DNA of 64,000 nt from Botryllus schlosseri (Eukaryota). The notes below the pieces were generated by a model. The model worked only from the letters and a program-made list of their open reading frames with translations. It was not told where the DNA came from and searched no databases. Both the position numbers and the translations under genes were made by a program. Numbering within the stretch: the first letter of the stretch is position 1; each line of letters starts with the position of its first letter. Below, one piece after another: positions 13,255 to 44,538 of the stretch. Location of the stretch: contig CM119371.1 of the NCBI GenBank assembly GCA_051294905.1, positions 36,830,001 to 36,894,000 of the forward strand, written 5' to 3'.

Positions 13255-14285
13255 GGCATTGTGATTATGCAGCATACCAAATTGCGTCACACATTTACAC
13301 TTCATGATGGAATAACTGTAAAACTAACCCAGTTCTATAGCAACTTTTGCCTACATCTGTTTTCGGTAGCGTGTACATGTACATATACATAGTCAGCTTT
13401 AATAACAGAATTACCATGCTAATATGTAACTCCTCACCTTGAAACTTGGTACGTAGTTGTAGGACATTGTTATTATGCAGCATACGAAATTTTCTTACGC
13501 ATTTCATAATGGAACAACTTTAAAACTAACGCGGCTCTATATCGACATTTTGCGTGCATCTGTTTTGTGGGGGCGTATAGTACGTACCCATACATAGCCA
13601 ACTTTAATAACGGAATTACCATGCTTAACATTGAATCCCAACTCTAAACTTGATACGTAGTTGTAGGACATTATGGCAATGCACCATGCTAGATTTCATC
13701 CCACATCTAATGATGGAACACCTTTGAAACTATCGCAGTCGAATACCGACTTTTACGCATATCTGTTTTTCGTGAACACAGCATATGCCAATACATAGTC
13801 AATTTTAATAACAGAATTAGTATGCTAAACATTAAATTCTCACCTTGAACGTTGGTACGCAGTTGTAGGACATAATAAGAATGCACCATACCAAATTTCG
13901 TCAGACATTTCATGATGTAACACCTTTAAAACCAACGCAGTTCTATACAGACTTTTGGCTAAGTCTGTTTTTCCGTAGCGTATAGCACGTACCTATGCAT
14001 AGTCAACTTTAATAACGGAATTACCATGTTAATAATCGACTCCCAACCTTGAAACTCGCTACACCGTTGTAAGACATTATGACAATGCACCATGTCAAAT
14101 TTTGTTACGCATTTCATGATTGAACAACTTCAAAACTAATCCAGTTCCATGCCGACTTTTGCGGGGGCGTAGCACGTATATGCATACTCAACTTTAATAA
14201 CGGAATTACCGAGCTTAACATTGAATGCGCAACTTGAAGATTGGTTCACAGGTGTAGGACATTATGACAATGGAACATACCACTG
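13255..14285 (+). repeat. ~200-bp unit tandem array (~5 diverged copies)
   Basis: Same unit, with a period of about 200-204 bp. Confidence 0.85.
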
Positions 14286-14929
14286 CGCTAACTTTCAGAA
14301 TTGTTAAGTATAGTACTCGCACTTTGTGAGAATACCCAAGTAGCTTCTTTGCCTACATGCACCAAATACTCTCAAGTCCTTATGATATTGGAGTACATCA
14401 ACTTCATGATAGCTAGAGTATTGAACAGAAATAGACCCAGAGTACTAACGTTTTACTTACTCGGAAATGACTACTTCTACCTTATTTTAAAGGATACCTC
14501 GTTCGAAGCGAAATTTATGTGGTTTTGGATAATATCCAAGATGTAGGCTCACTTTGAAGGGTACTTCCTAAAACTCAAATATTGCGCAAAAGTACAATTA
14601 GGGATCTAAAAGTAACTAATATAGATGGGTATTTTCGTAGATTACTTACCCTCTACTCAAGAGGTTTTTCAGGTGGAACTACCTACTTTTATGACTGTGT
14701 ATGTCAAAGTAGTTTGAGCTTACGTTTATATCACCTTGACAAGTGACATTATCACACATGAAAATGATATTATCGCGTAATACCAGAAGTTAACACACGT
14801 CAATGTGTTTCGGAAGTCACTAGAAATTGGTTACTAAGAAAAGTATTTGTGTACACAATAGCGGAGAGAATATTTAAAATGTAGTAAGCAGGCCGATGGG
14901 TATTCATTGAGTTGTATAAGCATAAAAAA

Positions 14930-14999
14930 CATTCCCGCGCGCGTCTTAGGATTAGGTGGTAGGGTTAGGCAGGGTTGGGTTTAGGAGCGCGCGGGAATG
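14930..14999. other. Symmetry-axis hairpin of E1: 13-bp GC stem plus 44-nt telomere-like G-rich loop
   Basis: CATTCCCGCGCGC / GTCTTAGGATTAGGTGGTAGGGTTAGGCAGGGTTGGGTTTAGGA / GCGCGCGGGAATG. Confidence 0.85.
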
Positions 15000-17580: not shown

Positions 17581-17910
17581 TCAACGATAATTTTCGTCTG
17601 TCTCTTGCGTCACGTCAACCAGTATGTACGAGAACGGTTTTCGAGTTGCCTTTTTATAAGCCTCCGTAAGGAATCCGGCTTTATCCGGGAACATTTGACG
17701 TGAAAGAAAACTGATTTGACTCGCATCGCGGGGATTTTTAAATATCACGATATAGCTCGCGCTCAAGGTCATATCCCGAAAGCCTTGACCCCTATAGAAC
17801 AAATTTTGACATATGAACACGACACTGATCTTTGCGTGATGGCTGTATCGAGTGAATAGATCTCTGGCCTCTTTCGCTTCCGTGATGTAACTTTCCTCAT
17901 TTGTATGCAT
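17581..17910 (-). pseudogene. Mirror copy of the Polinton packaging ATPase fragment
   Basis: Translation is identical to 8292-8621, in the right arm of E1. Confidence 0.85.
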
Positions 17911-20074
17911 AGCCTACGCGAAATTGGTTACCGAATTTTTTTGATTAGTTTAGATTCCGAATTTTATTTAAAACTGAAACTGTTAAGTACTACTAAAGTG
18001 TTATAAAATGTGAAAAAGTGTACAAGTAGTTATTAGTATGTCATGAATAAGTAGTTAAAATTCATACGATTTTTCTTGTTGCGTTCCAGGATAAAATGTA
18101 ATTTTTCGCTCTTTTCTTTATTTTTTAATTTTTAATAAAATAAGTATTCATTTTACAAAAAACGTCGACTTTTGAAAATGGAAAATGCGTGAGCTCGACT
18201 AACTTTTTACGTAGTTCGAAATCGCTACTTCTATGCATTAATTCAAAGTATTTGTCAGTCATCGTAACACCGCTCATATTGCGCGCTATCTATTTATTTC
18301 ACAGATAACGAATTACTCCTACTTTTATCAGAGGATACTTTTCTAGGATTTGCCTACTAACAGTACTTAGTTTAGATTAATAAAAGTATAGTGATTGAAA
18401 ATAGATCACTGGAATATAGTTTACAGAAAACTCCACAATTCTATGTGACGTCCTTGCATACCAACAACCTCCGAACTATTCGCCGCCTCATAAACACTTG
18501 AGTAGGCCTACATCTGATGCGTGAGGGGAAAACATAGGTAAATTTTCATATGCATTTAGTTTCCAACTCTGAAAGCAAGCTTAGTCTATGATCATTCGCG
18601 TACCATTAGTATTCATTTTACAAAAACGTCGTGTAAAGGTAAAGTACTTGTACATTTCGGAGTACTCAAGTATCAGTTTTGTCAGCTTATTATATGCTCA
18701 GTATATTATACGTCACAAATTGTGGAGCATTTATGTGGGTGCTCTAGGGTGCTCTTCATTGAGTGTTCGTGTTGGGTGATAAGTTTAATTTGCAAAATTA
18801 GCGCGTTCAAATCAGGCCTGTCGCCAACATAGTGATGTCGCATTAGCCCTAAATACACATAATAGAATATAAAGGAAAAGTATCACCTAACGTATAATGA
18901 ATGTTATCTATTTCTCGGAAGCAAGTTATTATCAAAACATAGTGGTCAAAATTATCGCAGAGCAATATCGATTTGCGTAAATTCCGTTATGCGTCTGACT
19001 ACGTTACTAGGGATCATGTAGTTAGTTAAGGAATTACGAGTCCTATCTTCCCAATCGCTATGGAACAACATCAAAATCATCACAAAGCAATATCGACAAA
19101 ATCTGCTTACTTTTATAACTTTATATTTTGTGAAGTAGAGAGTAGTTTAAGGTTATGTTTGTCTAACCTTAGCGAGTGCTATTGTCACACTCGATCACCA
19201 TCTTCAAATCATGGCTATCTCAATGATGTTGACTAAATTTTCGGCTTCAGAACGTGTTAATTAGACCTAATCGTTTTAACGCTGGGGTTCGCGTACAGGC
19301 ATCGATAGAGTTTGTATAAATAAAGCCCTGCGAATCGCACGCCTACGGCTATAGTTCGTTCGATTATTTTCACCTTGGGATTCGCGTATATGCTACTAAG
19401 CTGTTACGACTTTAGAAAATTCTACAAGACTATTCGGAACGCGCACATGCGAGTGATTTGTTTCCGTAGCTCCGAACTGGAGAATCGCTTGCCTGCGTCT
19501 AATGAAAATAAGTCGTAAAATGGGGAGGCTGCAGAGAGACAGTAACTTGTATACATAAAATCGAGTTTAAAAATATGGACGGATGAGTTATCTCTGAGCA
19601 ATAGAGTAATATAACCGCCTATAGTTTAGTGGGGTATTGGTATAATGTATATCCAAACAATCGTTGCAGACTCTGAATGTTACCTAGGTCCTTATCACAA
19701 AAAATCATTCATCAGAAGCGTAGGGGCTCATATTATCAAGTCGCAGCGCTCAAAATCGCATTTTATATTAAGTAATTAGTGATGATGTGTAGAATTTTGA
19801 TATTAATAATATTATCCGGAGAATATAGCCTTACATAGACATCATAGTTTTCGCATTTATGTATAATCTGAATAGGAATTTAAATACATAGTCCTAAATA
19901 CACATAATAGAAAATCTGTCGATTCTAGCCAAGGTAAGTTTTGACGCAGCAATTGTGGATGATGTAACAAGGGGTGTCCTATAGGTGCGGCAATGGGCGT
20001 CATATAGGCGTGGCAATTAGGGCGACGTGGCGAAATTTGATTGGCCTGCACGAAAAAAGGATGACAACACTACT

Positions 20075-20142
20075 CACGCACCCGTCGTTAGGGGATTTGC
20101 AGTATCCGTGATTATTTGCCTCGCAATTCGGTACGGCGGACA
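20075..20142 (-). CDS. Exon 2, 5' part (VSAVPNCEANNHGYCKSPNDGCV), interrupted by E1
   Basis: Acceptor TTTTTTCAG|TG. The frame continues up to the TSD (TGCGTG = Cys-Val). Confidence 0.8.
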
Positions 20143-24183: not shown

Positions 24184-25788
24184 TTATATGTCTCTTCCGG
24201 TCAATATAACATAGTCGATTAACGGTTGAATCGTTCTCTGATTAACTATCAGAGAAAATACTGTATAAGGTGTTCGATACTTCTGTACGTCTCTGCTCAG
24301 ATGGGTCCGTTCTACGGAATATTTATTACAGAATAGCACGAAATGGTCCACCGTTTCCGGCACACCACATTCCGCACAGACTCCACTTTCGTGTAAGCCG
24401 AGTTTGTGCAGGTGTTTGTTTAGCCTGCAATGACCGGTGTACAATCGGGTCAAGATCGAATTCTCTCTTCGGTTTCGATTGGTTTGCTTATGAAAAGTTA
24501 CTTGGAGCGACTCCATCTCCTGATTGCCGAGTTCGAGTATTTGTTGAGTGGTATTACGTCGTATGTCCCTGTAATATTCTGCTACGATGGCTTGACATTC
24601 TTTTGCTGTAAGAGGGACCATGTTTGGATGATCGACGGGTTCCCTGGATGCTTCCTTTGCCAAATTATCGGCGGTTTCGTTATATGCAAGTCCTTTGTGT
24701 GCGGGAATCCAAACAAACGTGACTGTTGATCCTCTTGCCGATAAATGGATGGTTTGTAAGTGAATGTCCCTGATTAAGTCATTGTCTTTAGATCGGTTGT
24801 CGATTGCTTTTATTGAGCTACTACTGTCCGAGAAAATTGCTAATTGTATGTTAGGTTCGCAATTGTTACAAGCCCATGCTAGACTGTCTCTGATAGCCGT
24901 CAGCTCCGCCGTAAATATACTCACAAGTCTGTTCAGTGATTTTTTATACGAAAATTCAAAACTGGGTACATAGAATGCTGATCCACATCCTGCGTCAGTT
25001 TTCGAGCCGTCTGTATAAATAGCACAATAGTTTTTGTATCGCTCTACTATTACTTCCCTGCATTCGATATTCATAGCTTGGGGATTATTGAGTTCGCGTA
25101 ATTTCATTTCTAGATCAAGGTCACAAGTGCTATTTACCGACGTCCAAGGGGGAATTTGTGAATATTGTATGCATTCTATTGCTATGTCCTTTAAGCACCC
25201 AACCTTTGAAACCATATTAAAGGTTTCAAATTGTATAGAGTCTGGAAATATTTCGTGCCAAGAGTCCTGGACGATCGAAGTACAGGGGTGATCTCTTTGT
25301 GATCTTATGATACACCGGTAATTTGCACACGCCTGTTTGTAACGCATTTCTACGGGCGGCTCGTTGCAAAGAAATTGTAGTGCATGTATCGGAGTGCTCC
25401 TCATTGCTCCGCTGCAGAGTCTCAACGCGTTATTTTGTAGCGTCTGAAGTCCTTTGGAGACATATTTCGGTGAAGCGAAATATGCTTCGATGCCATATTC
25501 GATGATCGAGCGTATCAGTGCCCTATACAGTACTAACATGCATTCTTTGGAGGCCCCCCATGTAGTTCCACTCAGACAACGAAGAATATTCATCCTGGAT
25601 GTGCATTTTTTGACCACAGATTGTAGGTGTGGTTTATATGAGAGTCTCGAATCAAATATTATGCCGAGATATGTGTATTCTTTTAGGAAGGGTATGGGAT
25701 CACTTCCAGACAAAATCTCAAGGGAAGGTAACTTGCGACGTCTCGTGAACAAAATGGCGGCAGATTTTGCGCTATTTATCTTCATGCC
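24184..25788 (-). pseudogene. LINE ORF2 C-terminal part: RT thumb, RNase H and Zn knuckle
   Basis: Motifs YLGIIFD, IYTDGSK, FTAELTAI, SDSSS, WIPAHKGLAYNETADNLAK and CAECGVPETVDHFVLFC. Same frame as the RT across the single stop (WCLK*GMKIN). Confidence 0.95.
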
Positions 25789-26813
25789 TCATTTCAAGCA
25801 CCAATTTGTGATCGCCGTGAGAGTCGTCTGTGTATCATTGCGTACCGTGTCGATGTTTAGCCCGGACTCGTAAAAACAAATGTCATCAGCGTATATGTTA
25901 AGTTTTGAGGCGATTTTATCAGGAAGGTCGTTCATCATCACAGCGAATAATAATGGCGAGAGAATACTTCCCTGGGCAATTCCATTGTCAGTATGGAAGA
26001 TTTCGGACAGGGTTGTACCCACGCGCACTCGAAATGTTCTCTGTTTCAGGAATGAGTGTATCCATCGTATTGCATTTCCTGAGATACCCATTTTGCGCAA
26101 TTTAAATAAGATAGCTCCTTGCCACGCCATGTCGTAGGCTTTCTCTAAATCGAGGAAGACCGATATTGTGTATCTCTTATTTGCGATAGCTTTGTAGACT
26201 TCGTCGTGTAGCGATAAGATGCAGTCTCGGGTACCGCGTCCTTTTCGAAACCCACTCTGTGCAGGGTGGAGGAGATTGTTACTTTCCAGATACCAAGTCA
26301 ACCGATTGCTAATCATACGCTCAAAGATTTTACATAAATCGCTTGTGAGCGAGATTGGTCTGTAACTGCTAACTTCGGAAGCGGGTTTTGCTTTTTTGTG
26401 AATCGGAACTACCACTGCGTGCTTCCAAGAAGGAGGGCATATGCCATCGCTCCAGGACTTGTTGATTATTCGGAGATATTCAATTGCGGTTCGTTGGGAC
26501 ACGTTTCGCATCATCTGGTGGCATATTCCATCATGGCCGGGCGACGCACCTTTTCTTTGACGGATTACCGTCATCAGTTCGTCCATTGTATACGGCGCGT
26601 TTATTCCAGTGTTCGACCCTATTTCCTGTAACAGCGGGGTCAGCTTATCAGCTTCAAACAAGTTGCGTCTAGTTTGCTCTACTTGTCCAAGGTTTTGGTT
26701 CCCACATACCGATGCGAAGTGCTTTCCAAGTGCGTTTGCTATCTGTTTTTCGTCAGTGAAAACGAGATTGTCGCTTTTCAGCGCAGTAATCACATTCCAG
26801 GATTGACTACCCC
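25789..26813 (-). pseudogene. LINE ORF2 middle part: reverse transcriptase
   Basis: Motifs SPGHDG, YRPISLTS, QSGFR, FLDLEKAYD, GIAQGSILSP and YADD. In frame with the EN part once E2 is removed. Ends at a premature TGA (likely TGG). Confidence 0.95.
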
Positions 26814-28290
26814 AGTAGTGAGGGTTGATCAAATTGGTACGCACCAATCACAGAACGCCACGTCATCCTAATTGCCACGCCTATATGACGCCCATTGTCA
26901 CGCCTACAGGATGCCCATTGCCACGTCACCTACCACTGCCACATCGTGTGTATTTATGAGCAAATTTCATTGTTTTGTGAATTTCAATACCGGTTTTCCA
27001 TGTATATTTAGCAATATGTATTGAATAACTTGAAATGTATCATCACTAATTAATTAATATAAAATGCGATTTTAAGCGCTGCGACTTGAAAATATTAATA
27101 TAATAACTTACTTTTTTGGATATAAATAACATTCAGATTACACATAAATTTCTAAAACTATGACGTCAATAGAATACTATATTTGCCAGATATTCACAGA
27201 TAACACTCATCAACGTTGAACTAGGCGCGGGGTTCTATGATGATATATCAAAATTCTACACATCATCACTAATTAATTAATTCATATAAAATGCGATTTT
27301 GAGCGCAGACAGATCGCGGTTTCGATTGCCGAGGTCTCCGCATTTCATGACCTTATATGAGCGCACACTACAACTGAATTCATTCCAATACCTGCAAATT
27401 TACTTTGCATGTCGAGTATAAGGATAATTTAATCAGCACTAAACGCCAACGGACTAGCCGTAGGCGCACAATTCTCGGCGTTACAATTAAACAAACTTTT
27501 CGCGGCAGGTACGCGATTCCCGACGTTATAATGATAGTGACAAATTAGCCGCATGAAAGCGAGTCTAATGAATATAACGACAGACAACAAGTTAGTTGAA
27601 AAGTAAAACTAATCGTGACCGATGCAAGACGACGTAAAACAGCGCTTTCGCTCGATTCTTGTAGTGACCACATTTCATACGATTCAGTCCTTTTCATGTC
27701 ACTAGAATAAGGGTGATTAAACCAACAGTGAAACGCCGCCGACGTCTTATAACGTAATAATGTAAGCTGCGTCGGGTGCTGCTATAATGTTAGGAGCGAA
27801 TATAGTAGAAAGTCCACGTCTGGACACCTATAAGCAAGTGTGCATACTACCGTAGTAAACGCATAACAGAATTCATGCAAAAGTCTATATTGCTTTGTGA
27901 TGATTTTGATGTTGTTCCATACCGATTGGGAAGATAGGACTCCTAATTTCCTTATCCCGGAACGTAGCAAGAAAAATCGTATAAATTTTGTAAAGTAGAT
28001 AGAAAACTACACTATTCCGATGCAGTAAAGACTCTTACATGCTGGATTTTGTGCAGTATATACTAATTTTACATTGCGGAGTATTCCATAAACGTTAATC
28101 CAGTGATCCTCCTTCTATTTTCAATCACGATCCGCTTATTATTCTAGGCTTCGAACCCCACACCCAGTACATTTTATGGGGATTAATATTTTTAGATTAA
28201 ATATAGCGTATCGAGACTTCGTGAAACTTACTCGGAAATAGTTATTTCTACCCTAATTTAATAGATTTCTCAGATATCGTAGCAACGGAA

Positions 28291-28372
28291 CTGGCTTCAG
28301 CGAGCGGTTAAGGCGTTGGACTTAAGTTTCAATGAACAAGTGTTCACATAGGTTCGAATCCCACACCCACTA
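28291..28372 (+). tRNA. Degenerate tRNA-Leu(UAA)-like sequence inside E2
   Basis: CGAGCGGTTAAGGCG D-arm, TTGGA-CTTAAGT-TTCAA anticodon arm, long variable arm GAACA..TGTTC and GGTTCGAATCC T-arm. The acceptor stem does not pair, so it is probably a pseudogene. Confidence 0.7.
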
Positions 28373-29696
28373 CGTTTACGAGAATTAATATTTTTAGATT
28401 CAAATTTAGCGTATTGAGTACTTTTTCTGCCTTTTTCAGCGCATTAGAGACGTTTACACTATTGATTTCATGAGCTTTACTTAAGTTTTATAAATTAACG
28501 TAAAAGTAGTCATTTCCGAGTAAGTAAAACGTTCGTATTGTAGGTTCATTTCTGCTTAATACTATAATTATCATGGAGTTGAAGCAGTCCAATATCAAAA
28601 ACACCCGAAAGTATTTGTTGCATATAGCTAAAATCCTAATTGAGTACTCTGAAGAAGTACAAGTAGCACAGTTTGTGGTATTTCTATGACATCGAAATTT
28701 AGCTAACCAGAACTTATACTTGAGTAGTCCGAAATGTACAAGTACTTTACCTTTACACGACGTTTCTGTAAAATGAATACTGATTTTATTAAAAATAAAA
28801 AAGCACGAAAAATTACATTTTATCCCAAACCATCAGAATACTAAAGTAGCTTATCGCGTATATGGAGCTAATACTAAAGTGTTTATGATTTCAGTTCGCT
28901 TCAACTTCATGACATTTTCAGTATTAAACAGAAGTATAGGCCTAGAATGCTAACTTTCTTCGTAAATTGCTACTTCTACCTTAATTTAACGGATTTATCT
29001 GAGATCATTGCTTTACTTAATCTCTCCAAAATGTGCATTATACTAGTACGTCACCATCGAATCCCTCTGGCTATAACTACCCGATAGTATAATTGAGCCA
29101 AATACTCGAGTACTAATTTTAAAGTAGCTTAGGTATCTAAATGAACCGACGGTCAGTAAACCATTTCGAAGTGCAAGTACAGGAATATCATAGTTCTTGA
29201 ACCGTGCTCAATGCTCAATAGACCATTTTTGCTATTTTTCATCGCCATAAGTCATTCTGGACCGCGTAAACGCATTGTACGTTATAGATGAAACTTATGC
29301 AAATCCCCGGAACGCAACAAGAAAAATCGTATGAATTTGTAAACTACTTATTCATGACATAATAATAATTCTACTTGTACACATTTTCACATTTTATAAC
29401 ACTTTAAGTAGTACTTGAAAGTTTTGTCAAGTTAACAGGTTAAAAACTTATACTTGAGCACTACGAAATGTACAAGTACTTTACCTTTACACGACGTTTT
29501 GTAAAATGAATACTAATTAAAAAATAAAAAATAAAAAAGAGCGAAAAATTACATGTTATCCCGGAACGCAACAAGAAAAATCGTAGGAATTTGTAAACTA
29601 CTTATTCGGTAAACTACTCTTTCCTTCACAAAACAAAGTTACAAAAGTAAGCAGATTTATATGAAAACCCGTTAAATAGAAGTAAAAGTAATAACA

Positions 29697-30245
29697 ATGC
29701 ATCATACCAAATTTGATCGCAATTTCATGATGCAATACCTTTAAAACTAACGCAGTTCTCTATACACTTTTGCGTAAATCTGTGTTTCGCTAGCGTAGCA
29801 CGTACCTATACATAGTAAGCTTCAATAACGGAATTACCATGCTAATAATCAAATCCCCCACCCTGAAACTCGGTACGCGGTTGTAGGACATTATGAAAAT
29901 ACAACATACCAAATTTCATCAGACATTTCATGATGTAACACCTTTAAAACCAACGCAGTTCTATACCGACTTTTGGCTAAATCTGTTATCCATAGCGCAG
30001 CACGTACCTATACATAGTCAACTTTAAAACGGAATTACCATGTTAATAATCGGCTCCCCACCTCGAAACTCGGTACGCAGTTGTAAGACATTATGACAAT
30101 GTACCATGTCAAATTTTGTTACGCATTTCATGATTGAACAACTTGAAAACTAACGCAGTTCTATACCGACATTTGCGTGAAACTGTTTTGCGGGAGCTTA
30201 GCGCATACCTATGCGTAGTCAACTTTAATGACGGAATTACAGATG
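29697..30245 (+). repeat. ~200-bp unit array in E2, mirrored at ~38596-39144
   Basis: Near-identical to 9855-10400. Confidence 0.85.
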
Positions 30246-32719
30246 TAATTAGGTTTCAACACTTTTACAACGATTCTTCTTGCTTCCTATAACATCACAC
30301 TCGAAGCCCTCGTTATTAGGCTATGATCTCAGCCTGAGCTATGTCTTGAAGCCTACGGACAATTTCATGATGCAATACCTTTAAAACTAACGCAGTTCTC
30401 TACACACTGATTAATTCTCCCTATGTTAATTTACCATAAGACAGACAATTTGACTCCTAAAGTCCGAAATACTTGTTCGCTTGAGCTAAGCCGCAGCGCC
30501 TGGAGTGGAATTTTATAGTTCTTGTAAAAAGTTGTTTATACACAATATATGTTTAAGGTAAGTCCTACGCATTCATGATTTCGTCCGAGTTTGTATTTTA
30601 GTAATATATACTAATACCGCGTTTGTAACTTGTGCAAGTAGGCCTACAGGAATATCATAGGTAAAGTCTCTGTCTTGCATTTAGTTGCCGGCTCTGAAAG
30701 CAAGCAAAGTTTGTGGTATTTGCGCAACATCGAAATTTGTACACTTCACGCGGGGCCTACGATACTTACGGCCTAATATGGCACATTACACTTGCTGGAT
30801 ATAAGAGGCCGACACTCCCAACCAGACATCACGACTGACTCAATGATTGCTTGCGATCTCACTTCTCGATACCAGACGCCTCGCCATACAAGTCTAATAA
30901 AGTATTATAACAGACAAAATTAGTTCTTTCAGATGAAACAACCCAATTAAGAGCCAAGTGACAGCGTCGCAATGTATTTAATCGTTCAGGTAGACTTGAA
31001 TCGTGATCCGGATCTCGTAACATAGTAAAATCGAGGTATGTAGTTTAATTACTCACTCACTACTCTATATGTTGGTGGTGGTCATACCCTGCAAACTTTT
31101 TTGCTGCGAACGTAGTGTTTCACCTTACATCAGTTGGTTCAATGTATGTACCGGGTTGTGAAAACTGTCGCTGTTTTGACTATGTGTCACAATCAATACT
31201 AAATACGAGAATTCGTTACTCGTCGAAACGCCGCAGTCAGACATCGTTAACAGCGATTCCGTGTATGGCAATCTTGAGTTCAATTGCGGTTTTGTGATGT
31301 TAACCAAGCGGCTGTGTTTCTGCGGTGTGAAGACTGAATTCGTGTTGTTTCCCTGCAAGAGTGCGATGTCTATTTCACACCTAGAGCAATTATAAAACGC
31401 ATCTTCGAAACTTTTGGTCTAGTTCATCCGCTTGCATTTCGAAACGGACCATCACGACAAGACTCTAACCCACCACATCCGAGGTTTCAGTTGATCATAT
31501 CGAAGAATATCATGTCCATCCGTGTTACCACCCACAGATTTCGCCATCCTCACACGGTAGTGCTAAGACACAGACAAGATGCGGTGGTGGAAATATTGAA
31601 AATGAGAAAGCAGACCTTGGTGTCATTTGATTTGGATTTTACACCCGATGAACCCACCATTCGAACTGCGCATTGGGATGAGGATTCTATCATTGATGTC
31701 GAGGGAAAGGAGATGTACAGATTTGTTGGTGTCGTGAATATTCAACGAAAGTCGGGGTATATGCTTGTGCATGGTTCGCGTATTTGACTGTGAAGATATC
31801 GCTATACATAACGTGCTGTTCACCGTATCGATAGCACCAACGAATATCCGTGAAAGGGTTGTAATCTCGGTGAAATAGTGTGCGACACATTTTTCCACAA
31901 TTCGAATGCATGTCGGTTCATACTAAGACCATGTTACGGTCAAATATGTGTGTTTTTCTGTCTCCAAGTCAGCTACCCCTCACATTGAATGTACAGAGTC
32001 GGTGCATGTATGAGACTTCAGAACATGAATTTGTAATCCATGATGCTTGTAATGCCGGCCATGATGTTATCCATGATGTATGTAATGTCACACACCTCGT
32101 TTACGCGAATACTTGGTATCTATGAACAATCGTGAAGTATACTGGATGTGTAATGTCTTGTTATTTTCATGGAAACACGAGGGTGTAACATGTTTGAATA
32201 TTGTTCATTGGTTTGTCGATTCAGAGTTAAAATACGTATTGACCAATAAAGAGTGACACAATATAGTAAACATGTGTGAGAAAACTCACAAGTAACCCGG
32301 ATTTGTTAGCGCGACGGGGACATAAATTCAACCATTATCCGTGTACCAAGCAGTTACCAAAGTCATGGAGGTTGCTAATTTCAACATATTGACTCTGTGG
32401 GAGGCTAAAGCACGAACCGGGACACACACAGACACACACACCAGGACACACAATATCCGTCGATTTCCAAAGCATACATTTCGATATACAAGAGCATATT
32501 GTTATTTCATGTGGTTAACCGTTGATATAGATGCGATGCGATCGACGCGGGTATACTCTGAAACCGGTTGTCCGTTTATATGAGAAAAGATGCTGTGAAG
32601 GACTTTAAAAAGCGGCAATTGAGCATAGTTGTGTCGAGTTACCGAATGATTTTTTCCTTACATCAAAACAACTAGAATGTGTAACTACATTAAACACGTA
32701 TCTAAATGAGCTCCAGGGC

Positions 32720-33735
32720 TTTGTGATTATGCAGCATACCAAATTGCATCACACATTTACATTTCATGATGGAATAACTTTAAAACTAACGCAGTTCTAT
32801 AGCAACTTTTGCCTACATCTGTTTCGCTAGCGTGTACATGTACATATACATAGTCAGCTTTAATACCAGAATTACCATGCTAATATGTGAATCCTCACCT
32901 TGAAACTTGGTACGTAGTTGTAGGACATTGTGATTATGCAGCATACGAAATTTCCTCACGCATTTCATAATGGAACAACTTTAAAACTAACGCGGCTCTA
33001 CATCGACATTTTGCGTACATCTGTTTTGTGAGGGGCGTATAGTACGTACCCAACTTTAATAACGGAATTACCATGCTTAACATTGAATCCCAACTCTAAA
33101 CTTGATACGTAGTTGTAGGAGATTATGGCAATGCACCATGCTAGATTTCATCATCACACATCTAATGATGGAACACCTTTGAAACTATCGCAGTCGAATA
33201 CCGACTTTTACGCATATCTGCTTTTCGTGAACACAGCATATACCCATACATAGTCAATTTTAATACCAGAATTAGTATGCTAAACATCAAATTCTCGCCT
33301 TGAACGTTGGTACGCAGTTGTAGGACATAATAAGAATGAACCATACCAAATTTCGTCACACATTTCATGATGTAACACCTTTAAAACCAACGCAGTTCTA
33401 TACAGACTTTTGGTTAAGTCTGTTTTTCCGTAGCGTAGCACGTACCTATGCATAGTCAACTTTAATAACGGAATTACCATGTTAATAATCGACTCCCAAC
33501 CTTGAAACTCGCTACACCGTTGTAAGACATTATGAAAATGCACCATGTCAAATTTTGTTACGCATTTCATGATTGAACAACTTTAAAACTAATCCAGTTC
33601 CATGCCGACTTTTGCGGGGGCGTAGCACGTACCTATGCATACTCAACTTTAATAACGGAATTACCGAGCTTAACATTGAATGCGCAACTTGAAGATCGGT
33701 TCACAGGTGTAGGACATTATGACAATGGAACATAC
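32720..33735 (+). repeat. ~200-bp unit array in E2 (~5 copies), mirrored at ~35106-36121
   Basis: Near-identical to 13255-14285. Confidence 0.85.
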
Positions 33736-34387
33736 CACTGCGCTAACTTTCAGAATTGTTAAGTATAGTACTCGCACTTTGTGAGAATACCCAAGTAGGT
33801 TTTTTGCCTACATGCACCAAATACTCTCAAGTCCTTATGATATTGGAGTACATCAACTTCATGATAGCTAGAGTATTGAACAGAAATGGACCTAGAGTAC
33901 TAACGTTTTACTTACTCGGAAATGACTACTTCTACCTTATTTTAAAGGATACCTCGTTCGAAGCGAAATTTATGTGGTTTTGGATAATATCCAAGATGTT
34001 GGCTCGCTTTGAAGGGTACTTCCTAAAACTCAAATATTGCGCAAAAGTACAATTAGGGATCTAAAAGTAACTAATATAGATGGTTATTTCCGTAGATAAC
34101 TTACCCTCTACTCAAGAGGTTTTTCAGGTGGAACTACCTACTTTTAGGACTGTGTATGTCAAAGTAGTTTGAGCTTACGTTTATATCACCTTGACAAGTG
34201 ACATTATCAGACATGAAAATGATATTATCACGTAATACCAGAAGTTAACACACGTCAATGTGTTTCGTAATTCAAGAGAAATTGGTTACTAAGAGAAGTA
34301 TATTCTTGTGTACACAATAGCGGAGAGAATATTTAAAATGTAGTAAGCAGGCCGATGGGTATTCATTGAGTTGTATAAGCATAAAAA

Positions 34388-34452
34388 CATTCCCGCGCGC
34401 TTCTAAACCCTGCCTAACCCTACCACCTAATCCTAAGACGCACGCGGGAATG
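34388..34452. other. Symmetry axis of E2: same GC stem plus 39-nt telomere-like loop (C-rich strand on +)
   Basis: Loop 34401-34439 TTCTAAACCCTGCCTAACCCTACCACCTAATCCTAAGAC is the reverse complement of the E1 loop minus one GGGTT, with one substitution. Confidence 0.9.
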
Positions 34453-37400
34453 TTTTTATGCTTATACAACTCAATGAATACCCATCGGCCTGCTTACTAC
34501 ATTTTAAATATTCTCTCCGCTATTGTGTACACAAGAATATACTTCTCTTAGTAACCAATTTCTCTTGAATTCCGAAACACATTGACGTGTGTTAACTTCT
34601 GGTATTACGTGATAATATCATTTTCATGTCTGATAATGTCACTTGTCAAGGTGATATAAACGTAAGCTCAAACTACTTTGACATACACAGTCCTAAAAGT
34701 AGGTAGTTCCACCTGAAAAACCTCTTGAGTAGAGGGTAAGTTATCTACGGAAATAACCATCTATATTAGTTACTTTTAGATCCCTAATTGTACTTTTGCG
34801 CAATATTTGAGTTTTAGGAAGTACCCTTCAAAGCGAGCCAACATCTTGGATATTATCCAAAACCACATAAATTTCGCTTCGAACGAGGTATCCTTTAAAA
34901 TAAGGTAGAAGTAGTCATTTCCGAGTAAGTAAAACGTTAGTACTCTAGGTCCATTTCTGTTCAATACTCTAGCTATCATGAAGTTGATGTACTCCAATAT
35001 CATAAGGACTTGAGAGTATTTGGTGCATGTAGGCAAAAAAACCTACTTGGGTATTCTCACAAAGTGCGAGTACTATACTTAACAATTCTGAAAGTTAGCG
35101 CAGTGGTATGTTCCATTGTCATAATGTCCTACACCTGTGAACCGATCTTCAAGTTGCTCATTCAATGTTAAGCTCGGTAATTCCGTTATTAAAGTTGAGT
35201 ATGCATAGGTACGTGCTACGCCCCCGCAAAAGTCGGCATGGAACTGGATTAGTTTTAAAGTTGTTCAATCATGAAATGCGTAACAAAATTTGACATGGTG
35301 CATTTTCATAATGTCTTACAACGGTGTAGCGAGTTTCAAGGTTGGGAGTCGATTATTAACATGGTAATTCCGTTATTAAAGTTGACTATGCATAGGTACG
35401 TGCTACGCTACGGAAAAACAGACTTAACCAAAAGTCTGTATAGAACTGCGTTGGTTTTAAAGGTGTTACATCATGAAATGTGTGACGAAATTTGGTATGG
35501 TTCATTCTTATTATGTCCTACAACTGCGTACCAACGTTCAAGGCGAGAATTTGATGTTTAGCATACTAATTCTGGTATTAAAATTGACTATGTATGGGTA
35601 TATGCTGTGTTCACGAAAAGCAGATATGCGTAAAAGTCGGTATTCGACTGCGATAGTTTCAAAGGTGTTCCATCATTAGATGTGTGATGATGAAATCTAG
35701 CATGGTGCATTGCCATAATCTCCTACAACTACGTATCAAGTTTAGAGTTGGGATTCAATGTTAAGCATGGTAATTCCGTTATTAAAGTTGGGTACGTACT
35801 ATACGCCCCTCACAAAACAGATGTACGCAAAATGTCGATGTAGAGCCGCGTTAGTTTTAAAGTTGTTCCATTATGAAATGCGTGAGGAAATTTCGTATGC
35901 TGCATAATCACAATGTCCTACAACTACGTACCAAGTTTCAAGGTGAGGATTCACATATTAGCATGGTAATTCTGGTATTAAAGCTGACTATGTATATGTA
36001 CATGTACACGCTAGCGAAACAGATGTAGGCAAAAGTTGCTATAGAACTGCGTTAGTTTTAAAGTTATTCCATCATGAAATGTAAATGTGTGATGCAATTT
36101 GGTATGCTGCATAATCACAAAGCCCTGGAGCTCATTTAGATACGTGCTTAATGTAGTTACACATTCTAGTTGTTTTGATGTAAGGAAAAAATCATTCGGT
36201 AACTCGACACAACTATGCTCAATTGCCGCTTTTTAAAGTCCTTCACAGCATCTTTTCTCATATAAACGGACAACCGGTTTCAGAGTATACCCGCGTCGAT
36301 CGCATCGCATCTATATCAACGGTTAACCACATGAAATAACAATATGCTCTTGTATATCGAAATGTATGCTTTGGAAATCGACGGATATTGTGTGTCCTGG
36401 TGTGTGTGTCTGTGTGTGTCCCGGTTCGTGCTTTAGCCTCCCACAGAGTCAATATGTTGAAATTAGCAACCTCCATGACTTTGGTAACTGCTTGGTACAC
36501 GGATAATGGTTGAATTTATGTCCCCGTCGCGCTAACAAATCCGGGTTACTTGTGAGTTTTCTCACACATGTTTACTATATTGTGTCACTCTTTATTGGTC
36601 AATACGTATTTCAACTCTGAATCGACAAACCAATGAACAATATTTAAACATGTTACACCCTCGTGTTTCCATGAAAATAACAAGACATTACACATCCAGT
36701 ATACTTCACGATTGTTCATAGATACCAAGTATTCGCGTAAACGAGGTGTGTGACATTACATACATCATGGATAACATCATGGCCGGCATTACAAGCATCA
36801 TGGATTACAAATTCATGTTCTGAAGTCTCATACATGCACCGACTCTGTACATTCAATGTGAGGGGTAGCTGACTTGGAGACAGAAAAACACACATATTTG
36901 ACCGTAACATGGTCTTAGTATGAACCGACATGCATTCGAATTGTGGAAAAATGTGTCGCACACTATTTCACCGAGATTACAACCCTTTCACGGATATTCG
37001 TTGGTGCTATCGATACGGTGAACAGCACGTTATGTATAGCGATATCTTCACAGTCAAATACGCGAACCATGCACAAGCATATACCCCGACTTTCGTTGAA
37101 TATTCACGACACCAACAAATCTGTACATCTCCTTTCCCTCGACATCAATGATAGAATCCTCATCCCAATGCGCAGTTCGAATGGTGGGTTCATCGGGTGT
37201 AAAATCCAAATCAAATGACACCAAGGTCTGCTTTCTCATTTTCAATATTTCCACCACCACATCTTGTCTGTGTCTTAGCACTACCGTGTGAGGATGGCGA
37301 AATCTGTGGGTGGTAACACGGATGGACATGATATTCTTCGATATGATCAACTGAAACCTCGGATGTGGTGGGTTAGAGTCTTGTCGTGATGGTCCGTTTC

Positions 37401-40400
37401 GAAATGCAAGCGGATGAACTAGACCAAAAGTTTCGAAGATGCGTTTTATAATTGCTCTAGGTGTGAAATAGACATCGCACTCTTGCAGGGAAACAACACG
37501 AATTCAGTCTTCACACCGCAGAAACACAGCCGCTTGGTTAACATCACAAAACCGCAATTGAACTCAAGATTGCCATACACGGAATCGCTGTTAACGATGT
37601 CTGACTGCGGCGTTTCGACGAGTAACGAATTCTCGTATTTAGTATTGATTGTGACACATAGTCAAAACAGCGACAGTTTTCACAACCCGGTACATACATT
37701 GAACCAACTGATGTAAGGTGAAACACTACGTTCGCAGCAAAAAAGTTTGCAGGGTATGACCACCACCAACATATAGAGTAGTGAGTGAGTAATTAAACTA
37801 CATACCTCGATTTTACTATGTTACGAGATCCGGATCACGATTCAAGTCTACCTGAACGATTAAATACATTGCGACGCTGTCACTTGGCTCTTAATTGGGT
37901 TGTTTCATCTGAAAGAACTAATTTTGTCTGTTATAATACTTTATTAGACTTGTATGGCGAGGCGTCTGGTATCGAGAAGTGAGATCGCAAGCAATCATTG
38001 AGTCAGTCGTGATGTCTGGTTGGGAGTGTCGGCCTCTTTTATCCAGCAAGTGTAATGTGCCATATTAGGCCGTAAGTATCGTAGGCCCCGCGTGAAGTGT
38101 ACAAATTTCGATGTTGCGCAAATACCACAAACTTTGCTTGCTTTCAGAGCCGGCAACTAAATGCAAGACAGAGACTTTACCTATGATATTCCTGTAGGCC
38201 TACTTGCACAAGTTACAAACGCGGTATTAGTATATATTACTAAAATACAAACTCGGACGAAATCATGAATGCGTAGGACTTACCTTAAACATATATTGTG
38301 TATAAACAACTTTTTACAAGAACTATAAAATTCCACTCCAGGCGCTGCGGCTTAGCTCAAGCGAACAAGTATTTCGGACTTTAGGAGTCAAATTGTCTGT
38401 CTTATGGTAAATTAACATAGGGAGAATTAATCAGTGTGTAGAGAACTGCGTTAGTTTTAAAGGTATTGCATCATGAAATTGTCCGTAGGCTTCAAGACAT
38501 AGCTCAGGCTGAGATCATAGCCTAATAACGAGGGCTTCGAGTGTGATGTTATAGGAAGCAAGAAGAATCGTTGTAAAAGTGTTGAAACCTAATTACATCT
38601 GTAATTCCGTCATTAAAGTTGACTACGCATAGGTATGCGCTAAGCTCCCGCAAAACAGTTTCACGCAAATGTCGGTATAGAACTGCGTTAGTTTTCAAGT
38701 TGTTCAATCATGAAATGCGTAACAAAATTTGACATGGTACATTGTCATAATGTCTTACAACTGCGTACCGAGTTTCGAGGTGGGGAGCCGATTATTAACA
38801 TGGTAATTCCGTTTTAAAGTTGACTATGTATAGGTACGTGCTGCGCTATGGATAACAGATTTAGCCAAAAGTCGGTATAGAACTGCGTTGGTTTTAAAGG
38901 TGTTACATCATGAAATGTCTGATGAAATTTGGTATGTTGTATTTTCATAATGTCCTACAACCGCGTACCGAGTTTCAGGGTGGGGGATTTGATTATTAGC
39001 ATGGTAATTCCGTTATTGAAGCTTACTATGTATAGGTACGTGCTACGCTAGCGAAACACAGATTTACGCAAAAGTGTATAGAGAACTGCGTTAGTTTTAA
39101 AGGTATTGCATCATGAAATTGCGATCAAATTTGGTATGATGCATTGTTATTACTTTTACTTCTATTTAACGGGTTTTCATATAAATCTGCTTACTTTTGT
39201 AACTTTGTTTTGTGAAGGAAAGAGTAGTTTACCGAATAAGTAGTTTACAAATTCCTACGATTTTTCTTGTTGCGTTCCGGGATAACATGTAATTTTTCGC
39301 TCTTTTTTATTTTTTATTTTTTAATTAGTATTCATTTTACAAAACGTCGTGTAAAGGTAAAGTACTTGTACATTTCGTAGTGCTCAAGTATAAGTTTTTA
39401 ACCTGTTAACTTGACAAAACTTTCAAGTACTACTTAAAGTGTTATAAAATGTGAAAATGTGTACAAGTAGAATTATTATTATGTCATGAATAAGTAGTTT
39501 ACAAATTCATACGATTTTTCTTGTTGCGTTCCGGGGATTTGCATAAGTTTCATCTATAACGTACAATGCGTTTACGCGGTCCAGAATGACTTATGGCGAT
39601 GAAAAATAGCAAAAATGGTCTATTGAGCATTGAGCACGGTTCAAGAACTATGATATTCCTGTACTTGCACTTCGAAATGGTTTACTGACCGTCGGTTCAT
39701 TTAGATACCTAAGCTACTTTAAAATTAGTACTCGAGTATTTGGCTCAATTATACTATCGGGTAGTTATAGCCAGAGGGATTCGATGGTGACGTACTAGTA
39801 TAATGCACATTTTGGAGAGATTAAGTAAAGCAATGATCTCAGATAAATCCGTTAAATTAAGGTAGAAGTAGCAATTTACGAAGAAAGTTAGCATTCTAGG
39901 CCTATACTTCTGTTTAATACTGAAAATGTCATGAAGTTGAAGCGAACTGAAATCATAAACACTTTAGTATTAGCTCCATATACGCGATAAGCTACTTTAG
40001 TATTCTGATGGTTTGGGATAAAATGTAATTTTTCGTGCTTTTTTATTTTTAATAAAATCAGTATTCATTTTACAGAAACGTCGTGTAAAGGTAAAGTACT
40101 TGTACATTTCGGACTACTCAAGTATAAGTTCTGGTTAGCTAAATTTCGATGTCATAGAAATACCACAAACTGTGCTACTTGTACTTCTTCAGAGTACTCA
40201 ATTAGGATTTTAGCTATATGCAACAAATACTTTCGGGTGTTTTTGATATTGGACTGCTTCAACTCCATGATAATTATAGTATTAAGCAGAAATGAACCTA
40301 CAATACGAACGTTTTACTTACTCGGAAATGACTACTTTTACGTTAATTTATAAAACTTAAGTAAAGCTCATGAAATCAATAGTGTAAACGTCTCTAATGC

Positions 40401-40468
40401 GCTGAAAAAGGCAGAAAAAGTACTCAATACGCTAAATTTGAATCTAAAAATATTAATTCTCGTAAACG

Positions 40469-40550
40469 TAGTGGGTGTGGGATTCGAACCTATGTGAACA
40501 CTTGTTCATTGAAACTTAAGTCCAACGCCTTAACCGCTCGCTGAAGCCAG
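40469..40550 (-). tRNA. Mirror copy of the tRNA-Leu(UAA)-like sequence
   Basis: Reverse complement of 28291-28372 in the right arm of E2. Confidence 0.7.
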
Positions 40551-42027
40551 TTCCGTTGCTACGATATCTGAGAAATCTATTAAATTAGGGTAGAAATAAC
40601 TATTTCCGAGTAAGTTTCACGAAGTCTCGATACGCTATATTTAATCTAAAAATATTAATCCCCATAAAATGTACTGGGTGTGGGGTTCGAAGCCTAGAAT
40701 AATAAGCGGATCGTGATTGAAAATAGAAGGAGGATCACTGGATTAACGTTTATGGAATACTCCGCAATGTAAAATTAGTATATACTGCACAAAATCCAGC
40801 ATGTAAGAGTCTTTACTGCATCGGAATAGTGTAGTTTTCTATCTACTTTACAAAATTTATACGATTTTTCTTGCTACGTTCCGGGATAAGGAAATTAGGA
40901 GTCCTATCTTCCCAATCGGTATGGAACAACATCAAAATCATCACAAAGCAATATAGACTTTTGCATGAATTCTGTTATGCGTTTACTACGGTAGTATGCA
41001 CACTTGCTTATAGGTGTCCAGACGTGGACTTTCTACTATATTCGCTCCTAACATTATAGCAGCACCCGACGCAGCTTACATTATTACGTTATAAGACGTC
41101 GGCGGCGTTTCACTGTTGGTTTAATCACCCTTATTCTAGTGACATGAAAAGGACTGAATCGTATGAAATGTGGTCACTACAAGAATCGAGCGAAAGCGCT
41201 GTTTTACGTCGTCTTGCATCGGTCACGATTAGTTTTACTTTTCAACTAACTTGTTGTCTGTCGTTATATTCATTAGACTCGCTTTCATGCGGCTAATTTG
41301 TCACTATCATTATAACGTCGGGAATCGCGTACCTGCCGCGAAAAGTTTGTTTAATTGTAACGCCGAGAATTGTGCGCCTACGGCTAGTCCGTTGGCGTTT
41401 AGTGCTGATTAAATTATCCTTATACTCGACATGCAAAGTAAATTTGCAGGTATTGGAATGAATTCAGTTGTAGTGTGCGCTCATATAAGGTCATGAAATG
41501 CGGAGACCTCGGCAATCGAAACCGCGATCTGTCTGCGCTCAAAATCGCATTTTATATGAATTAATTAATTAGTGATGATGTGTAGAATTTTGATATATCA
41601 TCATAGAACCCCGCGCCTAGTTCAACGTTGATGAGTGTTATCTGTGAATATCTGGCAAATATAGTATTCTATTGACGTCATAGTTTTAGAAATTTATGTG
41701 TAATCTGAATGTTATTTATATCCAAAAAAGTAAGTTATTATATTAATATTTTCAAGTCGCAGCGCTTAAAATCGCATTTTATATTAATTAATTAGTGATG
41801 ATACATTTCAAGTTATTCAATACATATTGCTAAATATACATGGAAAACCGGTATTGAAATTCACAAAACAATGAAATTTGCTCATAAATACACACGATGT
41901 GGCAGTGGTAGGTGACGTGGCAATGGGCATCCTGTAGGCGTGACAATGGGCGTCATATAGGCGTGGCAATTAGGATGACGTGGCGTTCTGTGATTGGTGC
42001 GTACCAATTTGATCAACCCTCACTACT

Positions 42028-43120
42028 TACCCCCCATAGCGCGGATAACTCTCCATACCTTCGAGACGCTCGTTGTTCTGTTCAATGAGCTACAGAACGA
42101 TTCCCAGTAGGATTTTTTTACTGTTATGATAGTCTTCTTCGCCATAGCCCGTCGGCGCTTGAAGTTTACCACATCGTCCACTTGGAAGCTCCGTTTCATC
42201 TTAAGAAAGGCTGCGCGTTTGAGACGTACGGCCTTTGCACACTCCGCATTCCACCATGGGACGCTTGGTTTGTTCGAAGGTTTTGTTGGGGGAATAGTAG
42301 CTTTCGCGGCTTGAGAGAGAGCTTGAGTGAATTCCTCTGGCGATAGAGGCTCTGTTTCGTCTTTAATTTTCGATTGTATATGGTTTTCACTCGTCTGTCT
42401 GAATTTTTTCCAGTTCGCATTCCGCAAAGACCAGGTTTCAAGATGCACATCGTTTACATGAATTTTGTGATCAATTCGACTCCAAATCACGTAGTGATCG
42501 CTTCCAAAAAGATTTTCGGTGACGTGGGTAGTGCATCTATTTGCGATACCGTTTGAAGTGATCGTTAAATCCAACAGTGACGCCCGGCCGCGGTTGGGGA
42601 ACGACAAATCGATTCTAGTTGGAACTGTGGTGTTCAGCACTACCATGTCTTTGCTATCGATAATATGCCCCATGTGTCTTCCACAGGTATTCATCGCGCT
42701 ACTACCCCATAAAGGATGATGCGCATTGAAATCTCCCAGAATTACGAATTTCGCTGTGCATCTACTGAAACATCGTTGCAGCAGTGACCTTGAGAGTTTT
42801 TTGTTAGGAGGGATGTACACGTTCATTATTGTAAGGCCTTGAATTGATATGATCTGGGACTCGATTGGCTGTACACTTTCTGTTGACATTTCTAAAAATG
42901 GGATTCGCGACTTGATAAACATGCATAGGCCACCGCCGTGGATATTTCTGTCCTTCCTCAGAATAACATAACCCGGTATTTTTGGAGAGTATTTTGGTAC
43001 CAAATGCGTCTCTTGTAATGCAATAATATCCGGCTTTCCATCCAAATCTAGAATGTACTTTTTGAGTTCGTCCAGTTTCCTATAGATACCTCGGCAATTC
43101 CACTGCATTATTTTTAACAT
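42028..43120 (-). pseudogene. LINE ORF2 N-terminal part: AP-like endonuclease
   Basis: Motifs MQWNCRG, IALQETHL, GDFNAHHPLWGS, LDLT, GSDH and PWWN. Truncated by E2. Confidence 0.95.
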
Positions 43121-44538
43121 GGTGAATTCTCTTGGTATGACATGCTCAAATCCATGACCGGCTCAAAATCTGCTTGCTCGTTGTGTGTTGTTGTGAGTTC
43201 TCGTTGTGATGAAATCGATTGATTTGACGTGGTTTCTGTGTTCGACGCGGCTGCATTGGACATCGGTCGATTTGGCATGCTTTTTGTGTTTGACGCGGCT
43301 TTATTTGATGTCGATCGATTTGGGGTGTTTTCTGTAAATGACGAAGCTGTATTGGGTAAAGACATACCGAGAAAAGATTCTGCGGACTTGGCAACAATGG
43401 ATGCAACGTTTATTTCTGTACCTTCATTCATGCAGATGAATGCACTTTTTATCACGTCTGCTGTAAATTGGAGAAATTCTGTTGTGGCAATGGAGATGTA
43501 GCCAGCACGGTTGTGGTTAGCGGCTATCGGGTTACTGTGTTTTTTGGCGTTGGGAGCAGTGTCAGTCGCGGGTGCATCTCTCCTTGGAGTGATGGCCGTG
43601 GGCATTGTTACTGCGTTGTTTCCTACAGGTGTCGAGTTTTGATGATGAAGGATAATTGCAGCGGGGCGCGGCAGAGTCGGAAAATCATCATATGATTGTG
43701 TGTTTGGCGGCATTTGTGTTAAAGTGTACTGTTGTCTGGCTTCCCAGTAACCTATTCCCTGTTGTGTCATTATCGAGTTAATTTTCCCTTCCTGTCGGTA
43801 ACGCGCACAACCGCCGTAACCAGCAGAGTGTTTCTCACCACAGTTCACACATCTTGGCTCTTTGTCGCAATTCTCGTATTTGTGCTGTTCTCCACATCTG
43901 GTGCAGCGTTGTGTGCTACGGCAGTATTTAGACTTGTGCCCAAACCGATTGCAGTTATAACATCTAGTTGGCGGTGGGTTATAAACTCGCGTGCGAAATT
44001 GCATGAAACCGATTTTTACCACCGTTGGTAATATGGTAGAGGCGAAGCATAACAGAACTGATCGACTCGGCTTAGACTCTCCGTTTGACTTATAAGAAAA
44101 CCGTCGCACAAATGTGACTTTGTGCATTGCTAATTCAGTTTGGATCTCTTCGTTGGTTAGATCCAAGGGAACATCTCCTATAACTCCCCGCGTCTCGGGT
44201 GTTTTCGTTTTGTACAGCTCGGCTCGTACCTCTATTGGTTTATCAGTAGTACCAAGGTTAGTGCACGTCAGCAGTTTCGAGACCTGATCGTAGCTCGCGC
44301 ATAATACGCACAAGTCGCCGGAAGGAAGTACTTTGATATCTTTTTAGGCACCGCCTAACACCTTATACAGCTGTCTATTGATGACCAATGGATTGAAAGA
44401 TCGTAGTTGCCTAGTTATACCCTTGACGATAACTGAAATACTAGTTTGTACCGAGTTGCTTGGAGCTGATTCTTTAGAAGCAGGTCCATTGAGCTGGTCT
44501 TCTGCGGAGCGCTTATGCGCTCCTTTTTTACTTGACAT
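43114..44538 (-). pseudogene. LINE ORF1 gag-like nucleic-acid-binding protein with one in-frame stop
   Basis: ORFs 44344-44538 and 43114-44313 are in the same frame (LGGA*KDIKVLPSGDLCV). Knuckles are CYNCNRFGHKSKYC, CTRCGEQHKYENC and CVNCGEKHSAGYGGC. Overlaps the ORF2 ATG by 7 nt. Confidence 0.9.

Follow-up and report, generated by a model that had tools for sequence, protein, structure and literature searches.

Whole-length palindromic Maverick-ended elements in Botryllus schlosseri turn around at a common GC stem with a telomere-like loop

The window, a 64,000-nucleotide stretch of the Botryllus schlosseri genome to which coordinates refer unless another location is named, contains two related palindromic elements, here designated E1 and E2. 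E2 (26814–42027) is a complete 15,214-bp palindromic element, delimited from an inverted-repeat map and by reading of its ends, which starts with AGTAGTG and finishes with CACTACT in the manner of Mavericks; reading of the flanks places the target-site duplication TACCCC at 26808–26813 and 42028–42033. The two arms meet at a 13-bp GC-rich stem whose left half (CATTCCCGCGCGC; 34388–34400, plus strand) and right half (GCACGCGGGAATG; 34440–34452, plus strand) are separated by a 39-nt loop (34401–34439) of degenerate (TTAGGG)n sequence, G-rich on the minus strand and without internal pairing. When folded as single-stranded DNA, the axis forms one hairpin of -25 to -28 kcal/mol (z about -10) with no self-pairing within the loop. 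The axis coordinates given for E2 and E1 in the initial annotation were correct on re-reading of the sequence, but its description of the loop as the sole asymmetry of E2 does not hold, as alignment of the arms across 7585 bases also shows seven substitutions and a single 1-nt indel between them, and the stem has one mismatch (34398 versus 34442). Each arm carries tandem arrays of 200–202 bp at 29696–30240 and 32759–33616 and at the mirror positions (2.7 and 4.3 copies), and a 23-bp array of 2.4 copies lies about 60 nt from each end. Eight RNA-seq reads from a single-cell run map to 34477–34686 in the right arm beside the axis, all in one orientation and none spanning the loop, and say little given that the family is multi-copy.

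E1 (6086–20074) is a 13,989-bp member of the same family with AGTAGTG at its start and CACTACT at its end as in E2, flanked by the duplication CACGCA at 6080–6085 and 20075–20080. Its axis (14930–14999, plus strand) consists of stem halves at 14930–14942 and 14987–14999 around a G-rich 44-nt loop (14943–14986), and on the plus strand the E1 and E2 loops are reverse complements of one another, with an extra GGGTT in E1 and a G>A change in E2. The right arm restarts at 15000, where it pairs with 12533 and downward, the counterpart of 12534–14929 being deleted flush with the stem base at a 3-nt microhomology, TTC. The left arm alone carries a later 1.3-kb insertion (10605–11926) that is bounded by CAGGGGTTCTCAAC...GTTGAGAACCCCTG and accompanied by the 8-bp duplication GTATAGAG, features by which it is hAT-like. 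CCAATCA is common to both elements about 30 nt from the terminus (26843–26850 in E2, 6116–6123 in E1), and just inside the termini they also share CGCCACGTC / CCTAATTGCCACGCC, with the first 30 nt after AGTAGTG differing between them; these shared motifs are possible origin or protein-binding motifs.

E2 cleanly disrupts a LINE on the minus strand, parts of which flank the insertion on both sides (24187–26813 and 42034–44343) with endonuclease (42026–43162), reverse transcriptase (RVT_1; 25792–26847), and RNase H (24187–25788) domains. The LINE reading frames on either side of E2 are still long and open. Because both elements have perfect 6-bp target duplications and E2 splits the LINE, E1 and E2 are real insertions and not assembly artefacts.

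A search of the whole genome assembly (495 Mb in 219 contigs) with an exact 18-mer spanning the A-run and stem, TAAAAAAYATTCCCGCGC, returned 247 forward and 239 reverse matches (control, 0), corresponding to approximately 250 axes. All 30 loci obtained through an axis search have the same stem and a homologous loop, which lies in one chromosomal orientation in 15 and in the other in 15. The same is true of full copies found through their ends rather than their centre: all eight turn around at a homologous axis, six with the canonical form and two belonging to a diverged but homologous subfamily in which there are concordant changes in both stem halves. The turnaround sequence that the initial annotation had noted in two elements is thus family-wide, with no copy in either sample folding back at an unrelated position. 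The subfamilies have very different arm interiors and hold in common their ends and a few hundred bases beside the axis; at the axis itself they retain the GC stem, the inverted A6/T6 tract that flanks it in nearly all copies, a loop length of about 36–47 nt, and its G/T-rich telomere-like texture. The axis, or part of the loop together with the stem, was also found in contigs of runs whose labels name two other organisms, and the axis pattern had no matches in viral and metagenome contigs. At the presumed centres of two other palindromic elements of this genome, a weak test because the coordinates were inferred, 1.2 kb of one contained neither the axis nor an inverted repeat and 241 nt of the other contained no axis. 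Copies were ascertained by their likeness to E1 and E2 and the sample is therefore biased towards young, intact members; detailed analysis took in 24–30 of the ~250 copies. Two axes lying 5.3 kb apart within one palindromic element on contig 16 (L073 and L074; G000:C16:11760001-11780000) were considered as a concatemer signature and rejected, as they result from a 5165-bp direct duplication with 99.98% identity inside one palindrome, the duplicated segment being made up of one arm, the axis, and 580 bp from the opposite arm.

The Maverick signature given in PMC8097293 comprises terminal inverted repeats, (AGT)2//(ACT)2 or (AG)3//(CT)3 ends, and 6-bp duplications, and E1 and E2 have both the (AGT)2...(ACT)2 ends and the 6-bp target duplications. 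None of their 36 ORFs of at least 60 aa (20 of them in E2, where the longest in an arm is 149 aa) reaches the curated cut-off of any Pfam family, and the sole Pfam row listed for them, Cas_Csn2, was rejected at 17.5 bits against a cut-off of 23.7. An autonomous Maverick encodes a protein-primed PolB and an rve integrase, along with an ATPase, a protease, and capsid proteins; as there is no such family among these ORFs, neither element is an autonomous Maverick.

Autonomous Mavericks with an E1/E2-like end motif and duplication length do co-reside in the genome. One of these, a 17,830-bp element with AGTAGT ends and the duplication AATGTT, is nested in one arm of a palindromic family member (G000:C1:20441537-20459366, or L060:5737 to L062:3566, within the host palindrome G000:C1:20425801-20460400). 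A Pfam search of its 14 ORFs identified an rve and chromodomain integrase, a Pox_A32-type ATPase, and Bcl-2 (PF00452) and ubiquitin-conjugating enzyme genes that adjoin its left end; the homologues of its 1310-aa polymerase carry PF03175, and there is a weak match to a cysteine protease (E 0.003). Structure-database searches returned nothing at E 0.01 or better for the polymerase, and for a capsid candidate the best match was to adenovirus penton at only E 0.99. On its gene content and ends this is apparently an intact Maverick, and no nickase, Rep, or resolvase family was found by Pfam among the 14 ORFs of this one copy. The genome holds at least 355 Maverick polymerase candidates, and the 35 that were scored, most with open frames of 1288–1314 aa, fall into at least four classes of amino acid identity (98–100, 91, ~67, and ~61%), which points to a Maverick population that is large and has probably been active recently.

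Bcl-2 is also a cargo of the palindromic family, many members of which, though not E1 or E2 (tblastn), have a 183–220-aa Bcl-2 ORF in both arms pointing toward the axis (e.g. L059:3569-4117 and its mirror copy). There are 428 candidate Bcl-2 sites genome-wide, most of the 150 scored being without stops. Since the frames are mostly open across 75–100% amino acid identity and dN/dS between subfamilies is 0.23–0.44, these satellites carry a gene under purifying selection. The family Bcl-2 and that of the nested Maverick are 81.5% identical over 449 bp of nucleotide sequence. Internally, E1 and E2 share only 93 bp at 84% with the nested Maverick. The search for a helper whose subterminal repeats match those of E1 and E2 found none: the nested Maverick aligns with the two elements over its first 6 nt, AGTAGT, alone, and an E2-type subterminal 17-mer with 98 matches does not occur close to any of the 35 scored polymerase loci except that of the nested copy, where it belongs to the host element.

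We compared the arms over the 300 bp beside the axis in 24 independent copies, leaving out three that are truncated and, from each of three duplicated pairs, one copy. The two arms agree in 541 of 552 cells (23 sublineage-distinguishing columns in 24 copies), and the mean distance between the arms of a copy is 0.38%, as against 3.2% between copies. Over 1450 bp there are zero to seven arm asymmetries per copy, none common to independent copies; shared asymmetries are present only in segmental duplicates or at an alignment artefact in the A-run. Because the substitutions that mark sublineages are symmetric, each fixed substitution must have passed to the other arm, and the arms are, to judge from these copies, homogenised as the family spreads. 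Differences acquired after insertion persist unrepaired (0–0.56%), and large one-arm events such as the 1.3-kb insertion in E1 and the 17.8-kb Maverick in one arm of another member are likewise uncorrected. This arm homogenisation is consistent with propagation through a snapped-back intermediate, and the combination of symmetric sublineage substitutions with unrepaired later differences fits better with a reset at transposition than with continuous conversion, though arm identity could equally reflect chromosomal gene conversion or the youth of the surviving copies. Two copies with similar one-arm deletions and opposite loop orientations (L008 and L027) were considered as flip-flop evidence and set aside, as their truncated arms are only ~87% alike and their junctions differ.

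The palindrome might on the other hand be a passive scar, derived from a one-off chromosomal fold-back inversion, with its arms kept alike by intrachromosomal gene conversion or simply young, and with a hairpin that is idle in transposition. Palindrome formation after telomere loss is a published model (PMC4981268), and both the freely drifting loop (see below) and the lack of homogenisation of the large one-arm insertions (the hAT-like one in E1 and the 17.8-kb Maverick) are as such a scar would have them. Against this, each of the 24 copies is symmetric for the substitutions that diagnose its sublineage, even as later differences go unrepaired. Moreover, 22-mers spanning the junctions of asymmetric derivatives are single-locus in three of three informative tests, and such derivatives have therefore not multiplied; a further junction pattern, from L083, was uninformative as it matches normal arm sequence (GTGGGAATCGAATTGG). 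We consider a passive scar unlikely.

Among the first 100 listed matches to the 18-mer, which represent 61 axes, 39 axes are paired and 22 unpaired; 18 of the latter were examined at this stage, the other four being among the copies sampled before. These 18 include six intact palindromes with small variants, four with breaks inside the loop, and eight in which one arm is replaced from a point about 0–9 nt outside the GC stem. With E1 and another full copy, the eight among the matches listed give at least 10 independent junctions at the stem base, with 3–6-nt microhomologies that use the outer stem letters (TTC, ATTC, GGGAAT); three further copies are broken 50–110 nt out from the stem. That at least 10 one-sided truncations start ~0–9 nt from the stem base supports the view that the axis behaves as a discrete hairpin. 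The truncated arm is 3′ of the G-rich strand in five cases and 5′ in five, and with no bias towards the G-rich side it is the stem and not the G-rich strand that sets the breakpoint position. E1 does, as originally observed, keep its axis despite losing the adjacent 2.4 kb, and it does so because deletion breakpoints concentrate at the stem base, with which its own deletion is flush.

The telomere-like character of the loop was borne out by a shuffle test, with TTAGGG rather than TTAGG as the repeat unit. The host telomere repeat is TTAGGG, as CCCTAA arrays are present at 8 of 18 contig starts; the arthropod-type repeat was rejected, as (TTAGG)6 has only 25 matches, all internal. Aligned to (TTAGGG)n, the E1 loop scores 25.0 (shuffle mean 9.8) and the E2 loop 20.5 (shuffle mean 8.1), and among 5000 composition-preserving shuffles of each, none and one, respectively, scored equal or better. 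No perfect TTAGGG unit is left in the loop, whose likeness to the host telomere repeat marks it as a degraded array of that repeat.

When 27 distinct loop variants were compared pairwise, divergence was greater in the loop than in the 37-nt flanks in 264 of 351 pairs (mean distance 0.212 versus 0.150), a contrast that is conservative, as some of the flanks are truncated-arm sequence that raises the flank distance. Private substitutions in close relatives number 7 in 1107 loop sites, versus 12 symmetric and 17 one-arm substitutions per 7360 arm sites. Since it diverges no more slowly than its flanks, the loop looks inherited rather than sequence-constrained, kept by descent without detectable selection on its sequence.

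This divergence speaks against the earlier proposal of a dedicated, sequence-specific cis element. In that proposal the axis would be a closed hairpin telomere or a resolution site of a half-length linear replicon, and the palindrome an unresolved dimer junction, comparable to poxvirus concatemer junctions or parvovirus hairpins, so that retention of the axis in all copies examined, homogenised arms, breakpoints gathered at the stem base, and the inverted A6/T6 around the stem in nearly all copies would each find a place in it. However, the loop sequence looks unconstrained, and a likeness to the hairpin end of a parvovirus or poxvirus is not supported: the hairpin is central rather than terminal, integration has involved the entire palindrome, complete with target duplications and Maverick ends, and the 14 ORFs of the nested Maverick include no nickase or resolvase family. 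A dedicated element is accordingly somewhat less probable in our view than a passive scar.

It is most improbable that the G-rich loop folds into a G-quadruplex that stalls polymerases and thereby causes or regulates the turnaround. The seven to eight G-tracts initially counted per loop apply to E1, with eight runs of at least two G, but not to E2, which has six; runs of at least three number three and two, respectively. The propensity of the loop for quadruplex formation is marginal: the motif (G3+N1-7)x4 is absent from the E1, E2, and variant loops, although two-tetrad patterns are possible, and the best 25-nt G4Hunter scores are 1.52 (E1) and 1.24 (E2) in a window where 19 sites reach 1.2. 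The even split of truncations about the G-rich strand also counts against this role, as does the loss of G-runs in many loop variants. As for an assembly artefact, such as an overlooked adapter or a long read that is chimeric and palindromic could produce, the near-perfect mirror-image arms of both elements might invite it, but it has a negligible chance of being right given the perfect target duplications and cleanly split LINE, the ~250 dispersed copies with lineage structure, the later insertions confined to one arm, and the presence of the axis in contigs of other runs and organism labels.

We therefore favour, with a probability of about 0.6, the interpretation that the feature is the axis of a whole-length palindromic, snap-back Maverick derivative that was founded once at a telomere-like tract and has since been mobilised in trans. 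Replication through the hairpin is inferred, and the best reading of the loop is as hairpin tip and spacer. To our knowledge the manner in which Mavericks/Polintons copy themselves is predicted from gene content and has not been shown directly; protein-primed replication is a homology-based prediction for which we know of no direct demonstration.

The snap-back derivative would have originated in a single founding fold-back, in which a short G-rich, telomere-like tract formed the terminus of a DNA with one Maverick end, or lay next to that DNA, whose 3′ end folded onto a self-complementary (CG)n and served to copy the arm. The resulting molecule would possess two identical Maverick ends usable by the protein-primed polymerase and integrase of a helper. 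During strand-displacement replication the single strand of the element would snap back into one long hairpin, in which copy-back synthesis or mismatch correction could keep the arms identical; the loop, which cannot pair, would persist as one asymmetric stretch and drift freely. Once in the chromosome, the ~40-nt spacer probably damps cruciform extrusion, and a role for the loop as a spacer that stabilises the palindrome is plausible. Polymerases or nucleases may slip at the stable GC mini-hairpin, giving flush one-arm deletions such as that in E1. No joints or loose ends indicating hairpin molecules were found at the axis in four RNA/DNA sequencing runs.

A bolder version of the snap-back interpretation, which we regard as a long shot on a par with the passive scar, is that the family consists of hairpin satellite replicons that rebuild the second arm at the axis in each round of replication, and that the loop derives from linear Maverick-end DNA capped by host telomerase before it folded back; the involvement of telomerase is a guess from the sequence of the loop. 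Were the hairpin-satellite version true, the family would be a genomic fossil record of protein-primed strand displacement as the means by which Mavericks replicate in the form of free linear DNA, and a gene-carrying satellite with two Bcl-2 copies rather than junk.

By analogy with defective genomes of the adenovirus type, protein-primed strand-displacement replication would be expected to yield a young and large family of derivatives that are palindromic over their whole length; in its favour are the symmetry of the lineage substitutions, the fixed tip of the hairpin, and the concentration of breakpoints at its base. The family is thus a tractable system for testing the predicted mode of Maverick replication. 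It also shows that a perfect 15-kb palindrome with a ~40-nt spacer can endure and be amplified in the genome of an animal, and it ties the emergence of a mobile element to sequence of the telomere type.

We found no description of whole-length palindromic Maverick derivatives in the literature on Mavericks/Polintons or on protein-primed palindromic genomes, and each of the known systems resembles this family in part. Mavericks/Polintons share with it the (AGT)2...(ACT)2 ends, 6-bp duplications, and terminal inverted repeats, Bcl-2 is a cargo of many family members as it is of the nested Maverick, and the co-resident autonomous copies have a protein-primed PolB, an rve integrase, an A32-type ATPase, and a (weakly matched) cysteine protease. 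In contrast to them, the inverted repeat here is the whole element, with arms of ~7.6 kb, no core genes, and a telomere-like loop at the centre; the terminal inverted repeats of vertebrate Mavericks are given as 46–1447 bp (PMC8097293). For protist virophages and polinton-like viruses, a 2026 preprint discusses whether small palindromes within their terminal repeats might be hairpins used in priming. Parvovirus and poxvirus hairpins are similar in being imperfect, with an unpaired tip, at the axis of an inverted duplication, and the occurrence of both chromosomal loop orientations (15 versus 15) is a further likeness; theirs, however, lie at the end of the genome and are processed by a virus nickase or resolvase, whereas ours is central and the 14 ORFs of the nested Maverick provide neither.

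Foldback (FB) transposons of the Drosophila type also have very long inverted arms, little or no coding sequence, and internal tandem repeats, to which the 200–202-bp arrays of E2 may be likened. FB transposons generate 9-bp duplications and have arms built of terminal tandem subrepeats. The present family differs in its 6-bp duplications, Maverick ends, and fixed homologous centre, and only the 23-bp array of 2.4 copies lies near the ends, the 200-bp arrays being internal.

Viral parallels are offered by protein-primed linear replicons such as adenovirus and phi29, with their panhandle intermediates and their defective genomes bearing large inverted duplications. In these systems a trinucleotide-repeat terminus suits jumping-back initiation, displaced strands pair through their inverted ends, and a genome can replicate with just one of its ends, present as an inverted duplicate; panhandle duplication was reportedly described by Leegwater et al. 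in 1988. Unlike those genomes, the elements described here are integrated, heritable, amplified to ~250 copies, and provided with a host-telomere-like spacer.

Fold-back inversions, as in Tetrahymena rDNA and yeast, resemble the family in that a very large palindrome surrounds a short centre which is itself not palindromic and is bordered by microhomology or by a short inverted repeat; a tie to chromosome ends and telomere loss is a further likeness. In yeast, palindromes that form after telomere loss by short-inverted-repeat-induced synthesis (PMC4981268) are a close chromosomal analogue of the proposed founding fold-back. Such inversions are nevertheless immobile rearrangements of chromosomes or minichromosomes, whereas in Botryllus the product would have gained two transposon ends and spread.
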